IMG/VR virus record: IMGVR_UViG_3300032282_003280
Coordinates: 27,275 to 91,274 of that record
Length of the DNA stretch: 64,000 bases
Direction: 5' to 3' (one strand)
Origin: a virus
Shown here: positions 1-554 of the stretch, piece after piece
Position numbering within the stretch: the first letter of the stretch is position 1
How the letters are laid out: each line of letters starts with the position of its first letter
The notes under the pieces: model-generated
What the model saw: only the letters and a program-made list of their open reading frames with translations
What the model was told of the DNA's origin: nothing
Database searches by the model: none
Translations under genes and position numbers: made by a program

Positions 1-554
1 GTTATACCGGCAAGTTCTGCCATTTGACCTATTACATCAAACTCAGGGAAACCTTCTTTATACTCATCTAATACTTGAGTCTCTTTTCTCTTCAGATAAT
101 CTAAGTTTAAGTAATTTCCACCCTTATGTCTTGAGCCTGTGTGTGATAAATAACAAATATCATCATTCATATACTTCTCAAAATCAAGGGGTTTAGAGAA
201 TACTATATCAGCATCATGATAAAATATTACATCGTTTGAAAGATCTGGAAACAAAGTAAAGTACTTAGCTAACATCCATGGTCTAAGTAAAGGGTTATAA
301 TCAATAATATCAATCATTGATGTGCACTCTCCATCCACATCTCTAAAATAATAAAACTTTGTTTCCGGATACTTCTTTTGTAATTGTCTCCAGGAGTCAG
401 GTACAGGCTGTGTTGATTGTTTCTCAGATACAAATACAAGAACTGTAGCTTTTTCTGAGTACCCCCACTTTCTAAAGTTTGTTAGTTGTACATCTGTTTG
501 CCATATAAAATAGGGTTGCAGAGGACAAGCCTGTATAAATTTTAGATTTTGCAT
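1..554 (-). CDS. Glycosyltransferase (GT-A fold) resembling plant peptidyl-Ser galactosyltransferase / Hyp-arabinosyltransferase (GT96/GT95-like); partial, runs off the window edge; not in the ORF track
   Basis: Hand translation from ATG 554 is open to position 1: MQNLKFIQACPLQPYFIWQTDVQLTNFRKWG...DYNPLLRPWMLAKYF...VIFYHDADIVFSKPLDF... It has a DxD motif plus YFxWQ and YxPxxRP motifs. Confidence 0.7.
   Translation of the reverse strand, partial: MQNLKFIQACPLQPYFIWQTDVQLTNFRKWGYSEKATVLVFVSEKQSTQPVPDSWRQLQKKYPETKFYYFRDVDGECTSMIDIIDYNPLLRPWMLAKYFTLFPDLSNDVIFYHDADIVFSKPLDFEKYMNDDICYLSHTGSRHKGGNYLNLDYLKRKETQVLDEYKEGFPEFDVIGQMAELAGI

Follow-up and report, generated by a model that had tools for sequence, protein, structure and literature searches.

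The window analysed here is a stretch of 64,000 nucleotides (nt) of viral DNA, bases 27275-91274 of the 91,274-bp IMG/VR record IMGVR_UViG_3300032282_003280, which is estimated to be 78% complete and continues for 27 kb past the window edge. A gene on the minus strand is cut by this edge, and its full-length product is, from sequence and genome comparison, probably a protein-threonine (Thr) O-glycosyltransferase. Within the window, the open reading frame (ORF) extends from an ATG at position 554 to the edge (3..554, minus strand, 184 amino acids, aa). An earlier note, made from the window alone, had read a series of motifs in this truncated frame, all of which are present in the order quoted: PYFIWQT (residues 14-20), NF (26-27), DYNPLLRPWML (85-95), and VIFYHDADIVFSKP (109-122). 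The complete ORF could be read from the parent record (G000 26770-27828, minus strand, corresponding to L001:996-2054, minus strand) and encodes 352 aa (P0001), with H292-x-x-G295 and K313 encoded outside the window, past its edge. The features of the window on which the following analysis centers are (window positions):

1..554, minus strand: N-terminal 184 codons of the 352-aa glycosyltransferase (GT) of the GT-A type, with the YFxWQ block, Y86/R91, and DxD (D114, D116).
586..1653, minus strand: mucin-like protein of 355 aa, 24.5% Thr, candidate acceptor, with a Cys-rich N-terminus and four poly-Thr/Ser tracts.
1668..2051, minus strand: protein of 127 aa, candidate acceptor, in which a TTTTTTT-AP linker lies between a small domain at the N-terminus and a Cys-containing one at the C-terminus.
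2048..3796, minus strand: GT2-TPR-GT2 protein of 582 aa from a TTG start (PF00535, E=9e-24; TPR_8; phrog_13126).
4100..6895, minus strand: collagen-like tail fiber of 931 aa, 20.5% Thr, without Thr runs, in the same tightly packed transcription unit.
47245..48324, minus strand: auxiliary capsid protein of 359 aa, similar to gp36 of phage crAss001 in fold and carrying a C-terminal tag.

The 352-aa ORF is a genuine conserved gene and not a chance frame, because it matches phrog_4417 ("unknown function") over its full length (E=5e-45; residues 5-348 against profile positions 2-292 of 293), has homologs, and yields a high-confidence model. Relatives numbered 140 in a large protein collection (best E=3.5e-133), relatives aligning to 80% or more of the query were present in 77 deposited phage records, and an exhaustive profile search put the size of the phrog_4417-type family at 928 clusters at 50% identity. 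An alignment of 72 sequences was the basis of the conservation counts and of the AlphaFold model, which has a GT-A fold (predicted local distance difference test, pLDDT, 96.6; predicted template modeling score, pTM, 0.94). Y86, R91, Y112, D114, D116, Q247, D252, H292, G295, and K313 do not vary across the alignment; within the first block, W18 is found in 64, F16 in 51, and Q or E at position 19 in 71 of the 72 sequences. The usual metal site of GT-A enzymes of this kind consists of a DxD motif and a later His, and by analogy D114-x-D116 together with H292 would constitute that of the phage enzyme, for which analogy with its GT8-type structural neighbors suggests a retaining (alpha-linking) mechanism. 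No membrane segment was found in the enzyme (peak 19-residue hydropathy 0.69), which has the first strand of its fold right at the N-terminus; because a hydrophobic segment is lacking, it should be soluble and act in the cytoplasm.

Two structure searches both placed the model among GT-A glycosyltransferases, with identities of 7-10% throughout. The best solved matches (scores in brackets) were LgtC (14.3), the C-terminal domain of WbbM (14.0), and the Skp1 alpha-galactosyltransferase (13.7), followed by the UGGT catalytic domain (13.7), GlyE of the pneumococcal serine-rich-repeat pathway (13.4), and, lower down, the chlorovirus protein A64R (11.0). PDB sequence and profile searches with the enzyme returned nothing meaningful. 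The GT8 Pfam model PF01501 had no match in the phage record, with controls matching in 6 genomes, and none to the enzyme by hmmscan; DUF7164 (PF23741), to which the ESM Atlas had pointed, had no match in the phage genome.

Reading the whole 91-kb record in six frames revealed Thr runs in four proteins only: a 66-aa protein, the 355-aa protein, and the 127-aa protein around the enzyme gene, and, 46 kb off, the C-terminus of the 359-aa head-module protein. The tracts of the 355-aa protein, which has no significant match in Pfam or PHROG, are up to 31 residues long, end in ...TTTTLPT or ...TTTTTTTVAP, and lie between small Cys-containing domains. From a 117-aa ORF through the 66-aa ORF, all genes are on one strand with gaps of -4 to +33 nt, and the genes of the 127-aa and GT2-TPR-GT2 proteins overlap by 4 nt. 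The codons of the Thr tracts are mixed (ACT 37, ACA 34, ACC 10, ACG 2), with both Ser codon classes used, and the tracts are therefore a matter of selection at the protein level rather than of slippage. The GT2-TPR-GT2 protein is probably a second transferase of the same operon, either extending the glycan or being itself an alternative protein-directed enzyme. The collagen-like tail fiber is possibly an additional candidate acceptor.

The distant Thr run is the sequence TTTTTTLP, which forms the final eight residues of the 359-aa protein (window 47248-47271; the end reads ...EVFTTTTTTLP). The model of this protein, built from 59 homologs (pLDDT 86.7), had significant structural matches only to virion chains of crAss001, the best of which was a 333-residue capsid chain (E=1.6e-10, probability 1.0), and these were followed by weak matches to FliD. 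PDB sequence and profile searches with the auxiliary and major capsid proteins yielded nothing meaningful. The auxiliary capsid protein gp36 of crAss001 has 333 residues comprising a PH domain and a FliD-like domain, and is present in nine copies per asymmetric unit in the outer layer of the capsid wall (PMC10172136). By analogy, the tag would be shown hundreds of times on the surface of the head. The phage is crAss-like, because it encodes this gp36-like capsid protein, because an adjoining gene for a 240-aa protein (window 48356-49078, minus strand) matches PF25710 (crAss tail ring protein 3/4) weakly and below the cut-off (E=6e-5), and because portal, terminase, and major head protein were found in its genome.

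The tag is facultative, as a poly-Ser/Thr tail is present in 56 of the 111 homologs of the auxiliary capsid protein (P0265-P0375). This tail starts after a conserved "...FLG.P.DES" sequence and frequently ends in L-I-P, L-F-P, or L-P; the other 55 homologs stop at that conserved end. Among the homologs from IMG/VR, the loci of which were located with a closer alignment of 17 capsid-protein sequences, 78 of 80 were tagged. The enzyme was searched for in 17 records of at least 50 kb, and those at least 90% complete were used to relate its presence to that of the tag. In these complete related genomes, it was present in 5/5 with and in 0/2 without the tag. The two enzyme-less genomes are whole (118.7 and 126.0 kb) and contain zero Thr runs, the enzyme-bearing ones between 2 and 20. 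Linkage within one cassette cannot explain this pattern because the tags lie far from the gene.

The coupling of the enzyme to Thr runs extends well beyond the close relatives. Eighty viral contigs were collected with the family profile, and ORFs within 2 kb of the gene were compared with those farther away. A Thr run was present in 126/665 ORFs (19%) in the vicinity of the gene versus 8/1240 (0.6%) beyond, and 65 of the 80 loci have a Thr-run ORF beside it; the loci are mutually related, so these counts overstate the number of independent events, and greater independence can be claimed for the seven annotated lineages. The residues most commonly following a run are VAP, AAP, or PAP. In the annotated phages, the family gene lies within the morphogenesis module, and the Thr-rich proteins found there are:

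Lactobacillus phage iLp84: major capsid protein ending in VPTTTTTTTSK, major tail protein ending in GETTTTTTTSK, and a 125-aa protein (41% Ser+Thr) just upstream.
Enterococcus phage phiFL1A: long terminal Thr runs on a capsid-position protein and on the major tail protein, with the tail protein immediately upstream.
Clostridium phage phiCTP1: Thr tags on a head-module protein and on a protein in tail-tube position.
Enterococcus phage Planchet: Thr tag on the major tail protein.
Staphylococcus phage RQ1: Thr tag on the major tail protein.
Chryseobacterium phage MA9V-3: windows of 20/20 Ser/Thr in both upstream proteins.
Levilactobacillus phage ENFP1: abundant Thr-Thr-Val-Ala-Pro repeats, instead of poly-Thr tracts, in two upstream proteins.

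A literature search returned no description of poly-Thr tags on phage proteins. Neither GT2 nor GT1 genes could be detected in five Firmicutes phages whose capsid or tail proteins are tagged (controls matched in 14/14 genomes). Because the phrog_4417-type enzyme is the sole recognizable phage transferase there, an initiating role, that is, direct action on the protein, is favored.

Two further observations were made at these loci. In Planchet, a poly-Thr frame begins right after the stop codon of the major capsid gene (L086:5778-5880), and in RQ1, one overlaps the end of the major tail protein gene (L088:5623-5934), each in another frame than the gene, an arrangement that suggests programmed frameshifting by which only a fraction of the subunits would be tagged. 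Tiny proteins of two conserved families border the enzyme gene in L005-L084 (for example, L021:9223-9360 and L021:11017-11250; in the genome studied here, L001:762-962, minus strand). Upstream, they are ~45 aa long and consist of a helix ("...QIGWS..NLLWQISKQL...") followed by T7-VAP; downstream, they have 60-90 aa, with "...KPKVGKW.EI.AYECCN" preceding T7-xAP repeats. It may be speculated that these are minimal head fibers made of a short anchor and a glycosylated tail, the anchors perhaps being comparable with the short N-terminal ones of crAss001 gp21 and gp29.

The family also occurs in bacterial chromosomes (Sphingobacterium, Pedobacter, Chitinophaga, Elizabethkingia, and Olivibacter). 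These Bacteroidota homologs (450-711 aa) are fusions that include a second domain, for example Glyco_transf_7C, and they have no Thr-run neighbors; outside the Bacteroidota clusters, the fusion partners of family members are other sugar-handling domains. Beside the fused homologs lie genes for ATP-binding cassette (ABC) exporters with a C39 peptidase, a thioredoxin-like protein, and a LanC-like protein, together with small peptides that have a double-glycine leader (MKKISLKNLNLKEVEQLSREQLK.V.GG) followed by Ser/Thr-rich and then Cys-rich cores. Examples from loci L096-L106 are:

L097:1988-2224
L097:4440-4712
L101:2102-2380
L103:1942-2169
L096:2701-4920

These clusters are a second, unrelated setting in which the family stands beside Ser/Thr-rich peptides. 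No description of the family in peptide clusters was found in the literature search, and they may represent an undescribed class of glycosylated ribosomal peptides.

The motifs had originally been taken as signs of kinship with plant and algal peptide O-glycosyltransferases of the HPAT and SGT1 type, and part of this view can be upheld. The enzyme itself matches no Pfam model. PF23452 (HPAT), the sole Pfam family repeatedly matched by its relatives and the one matched most often, was hit by 4 of the 72 (best E=5.8e-4), all four below threshold (best score 19.8 bits, gathering cut-off 23.9). However, all four alignments place model positions ~190-237 on enzyme residues ~245-291 with an identical offset, and one of them extends over model positions 55-226, through the DxD region; such a common register in four separate alignments is hard to obtain by chance. 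In the ESM Atlas, PF23452 was assigned to 22 of the 30 nearest named clusters, including a bacterial cluster with 58% of its members, and superposition of the Atlas model with a green-algal cluster (99% HPAT) gave a template modeling (TM) score of 0.68 over 294 residues, a figure not specific to HPAT, as a phage cluster of N-acetylglucosamine transferases scored 0.68 as well. On the negative side, none of 104 further family representatives matched HPAT at E<=0.1. PF23452 found no candidates in the phage's own record or in those of ten relatives, the first-pass filter being coarse for remote signals, gave a single chance-level match in five bacterial genomes, and had none in the 401 Bacteroidota genomes searched. 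A search with the family profile among long proteins, with E up to 10, retrieved two fused family members only. The best solved structural matches are GT8-type, which the earlier note would have counted against the plant link; they do not weigh against it because no GT95 or GT96 structure surfaced in the PDB searches made here, so that the comparison was not a fair one. Remote kinship of the phage family with HPAT/SGT1 is thus probable, membership in PF23452 is not established, and instead of being a viral member of a mostly eukaryotic family, the enzyme is part of a separate, large family found in phages and bacteria.

Some other features of the window are recorded here. A 249-aa ORF at 7122-7871 (minus strand) had no Pfam match at E<=0.01 and was not counted as a transferase. 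The large subunit of the terminase (56035-59136, minus strand) is unusually long (1033 aa); because P-loop profiles of primases and helicase loaders match its first half as well, it may contain a fusion or an insertion. The structural block contains very large ORFs on the minus strand, at 13679-25591 (3970 aa), 8604-13676 (1690 aa), and 33629-38809 (1726 aa); large virion-packaged proteins are typical of crAss-like phages.

The reading that best accounts for these data, and which we consider likely as a whole, is that a soluble GT-A enzyme glycosylates the Thr runs of the phage's own proteins and thereby provides the virion with a coat of glycans. Late in infection, the metal-dependent enzyme would transfer a sugar, in the cytoplasm, from a nucleotide-sugar donor to the hydroxyl groups of Thr in runs of n residues followed by x-A-P or L-P (Tn-xAP or Tn-LP). 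Its likely acceptors would be the three small mucin-like proteins encoded next to it and the TTTTTTLP tag of the outer auxiliary capsid protein, with hundreds of copies per head, and the glycan would possibly be extended by the neighboring GT2-TPR-GT2 protein. The resulting virion would wear a glycan coat, the purpose of which we infer to be shielding, stability, or adhesion. That the enzyme is the transferase for the adjacent poly-Thr proteins, as the earlier note had proposed, has become very probable through comparative genomics (the 80 loci, the annotated lineages, and the presence/absence pattern), which adds the capsid tag 46 kb away to the candidate acceptors.

Several points weigh against this reading. 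The presence/absence comparison comprises 7 complete genomes (Fisher p about 0.05), and kinship among the 80 viral loci inflates the count of independent events. Fifteen of these loci have no Thr ORF beside the gene; for one of the fifteen, the complete genome was scanned, and its tags lie elsewhere. The case for protein glycosylation by the family consists of comparative genomics and a model, and some enzymes among the nearest solved structures have glycans or lipids as substrates. The GT2-TPR-GT2 protein could be the protein-directed initiator, with the enzyme as the extender, and in the small phages, host glycosyltransferases may serve as initiators.

The last two points lead to the explanation that survives best besides the preferred one, namely, that the enzyme is an extender within a virion protein-glycosylation pathway and acts after a starter such as GT2-TPR-GT2 or a host enzyme. 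This explanation draws on the double-GT2 protein two genes upstream in the same operon, whose TPR domain is of a kind that commonly binds protein substrates, on the structural neighbor GlyE, which extends glycans on serine-rich repeat proteins, and on the second transferase domain fused to many family members. We nevertheless regard it as unlikely, given the five tagged Firmicutes phages that carry the family without a detectable GT2 or GT1, and given that, of the transferases seen, the phrog_4417-type family alone accompanies Thr runs across all lineages examined (other transferases were not surveyed over the 80 loci).

That the enzyme acts on a glycan of host or phage (lipopolysaccharide, capsule, or teichoic acid) rather than on protein, for instance, in surface conversion or superinfection exclusion, with the Thr-rich genes as passengers of the cassette, appears quite improbable. 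LgtC and WbbM, among the closest solved folds, are a lipooligosaccharide and an O-antigen enzyme, respectively, and PHROGs assigns the neighboring transferases to the class "moron, auxiliary metabolic gene and host takeover". Yet the enzyme has no membrane segment, small phages keep its gene in late structural modules beside capsid or tail-tube genes, its presence is tracked by Thr tags 46 kb distant, and the bacterial homologs reside in peptide-modification clusters and not in polysaccharide loci. Glycosylation of modified DNA bases, as by the glucosyltransferases of T4, is less probable still: some soluble phage-encoded glycosyltransferases of unknown family do modify DNA, but genes for base hydroxymethylation were not seen in the vicinity, the family is found in 36-40 kb temperate siphophages within head and tail modules, no DNA glucosyltransferase was among the structural matches listed, and DNA modification would account neither for the tight coupling to Thr runs nor for the peptide clusters of bacteria. 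Both modification of host glycans and modification of DNA were rejected on account of the Thr-run link, the position in late modules, and the bacterial peptide clusters.

Glycosylation of the phage's own Thr runs may be part of a wider phenomenon. Tentatively, and with somewhat more doubt than confidence, we propose that the enzyme family and the Tn-xAP tag constitute a portable writer-and-tag module, by which phages as different as the crAss-like ones of Bacteroidota and small siphophages infecting lactic acid bacteria, enterococci, staphylococci, or clostridia would give a mucin-like glycan coat to their capsids, tails, and tiny anchor proteins; the family would then be a prokaryotic and viral sister of HPAT/SGT1, and the Bacteroidota clusters would make new glycosylated ribosomal peptides. 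If the family does write sugars onto Thr tags, glycosylated virions would be a common occurrence, among crAss-like phages as well as among those infecting enterococci, staphylococci, clostridia, and dairy lactobacilli, which would bear on phage therapy (antibody evasion and pharmacokinetics), on adherence to mucus, on particle stability, and on how cryo-electron microscopy maps and proteomes are read. For bacterial glyco-engineering, a short Thr tag that can be transferred and is written by one soluble enzyme would be a useful tool, and the link to double-glycine leaders hints at glycosylated peptides of Bacteroidota as a class still untapped. Should the tie to plant HPAT/SGT1 be confirmed, soluble prokaryotic relatives suited to structural work on these poorly understood enzymes would become available.

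Among known systems, HPAT (CAZy GT95, hydroxyproline O-arabinosyltransferase) and SGT1/SERGT1 (CAZy GT96, peptidyl-serine alpha-galactosyltransferase) attach the first sugar to hydroxy-amino acids of repetitive, extended proteins, namely, arabinofuranose to hydroxyproline and galactose to Ser, respectively, in motifs of the extensin type. PF23452 covers GT95, to which the GT96 enzymes are said to be related. The register of PF23452 on the relatives of the phage enzyme covers the DxD region and the block with Q247 and D252. Plant HPAT and SGT1 are Golgi membrane proteins, whereas the phage enzyme is without a membrane anchor and predicted to be soluble, and its likely acceptor is Thr, not hydroxyproline or Ser. 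GT8-type enzymes (glycogenin, LgtC, the WbbM C-terminal domain, the Skp1 alpha-galactosyltransferase, and GlyE) have the DxD motif in common with the phage family, which has a later invariant His, and the substrates of glycogenin, the Skp1 enzyme, and GlyE are proteins or protein-borne glycans. In contrast to these enzymes, to which its sequence identity is 8-10%, ~100 extra, largely helical residues of the phage enzyme lie outside the structural match, and the GT8 Pfam model is not matched. A64R of chlorovirus PBCV-1 (PDB 2P6W) is likewise a virus-encoded glycosyltransferase, which serves the major capsid protein; it differs in belonging to a eukaryotic virus, in the lack of Thr tags, and in a much weaker structural match. 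The glycan in that system is N-linked.

The Bacteroidota clusters resemble those of glycocins (sublancin SunS/SunT type) in having a C39-ABC exporter, thioredoxin-like proteins, and Cys-rich peptides with double-glycine leaders (PMC12457901, PMC6405829). The known glycocin transferases are GT2-type (SunS-like), whereas the Bacteroidota clusters use the phrog_4417-type family fused to a second domain.

The functionally closest known system is the glycosylation of mycobacteriophage virions. In work by Freeman et al. (2023, Cell Host Microbe 31:1216, cited in PMC13313380), glycosyltransferases encoded by mycobacteriophages reportedly modify the phages' own capsid and tail proteins, which results in a sugar-coated virion. 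To our knowledge, mycobacteriophages are the only phages for which glycosylation of the particle has been proven experimentally, and there, it affects immune recognition. Phage self-glycosylation as such is thus known; no description of the present family, its Thr tag, or its host range was found in the literature search. A trait of the mycobacteriophage type, a phage-encoded transferase coupled in the genome to virion proteins extended by Ser/Thr-rich stretches, is found here as well. The one described here differs in that its transferase belongs to phrog_4417, a family without functional annotation, in that it is found in crAss-like and Firmicutes phages, and in that its tag consists of Thr only, as Tn-xAP or Tn-LP.
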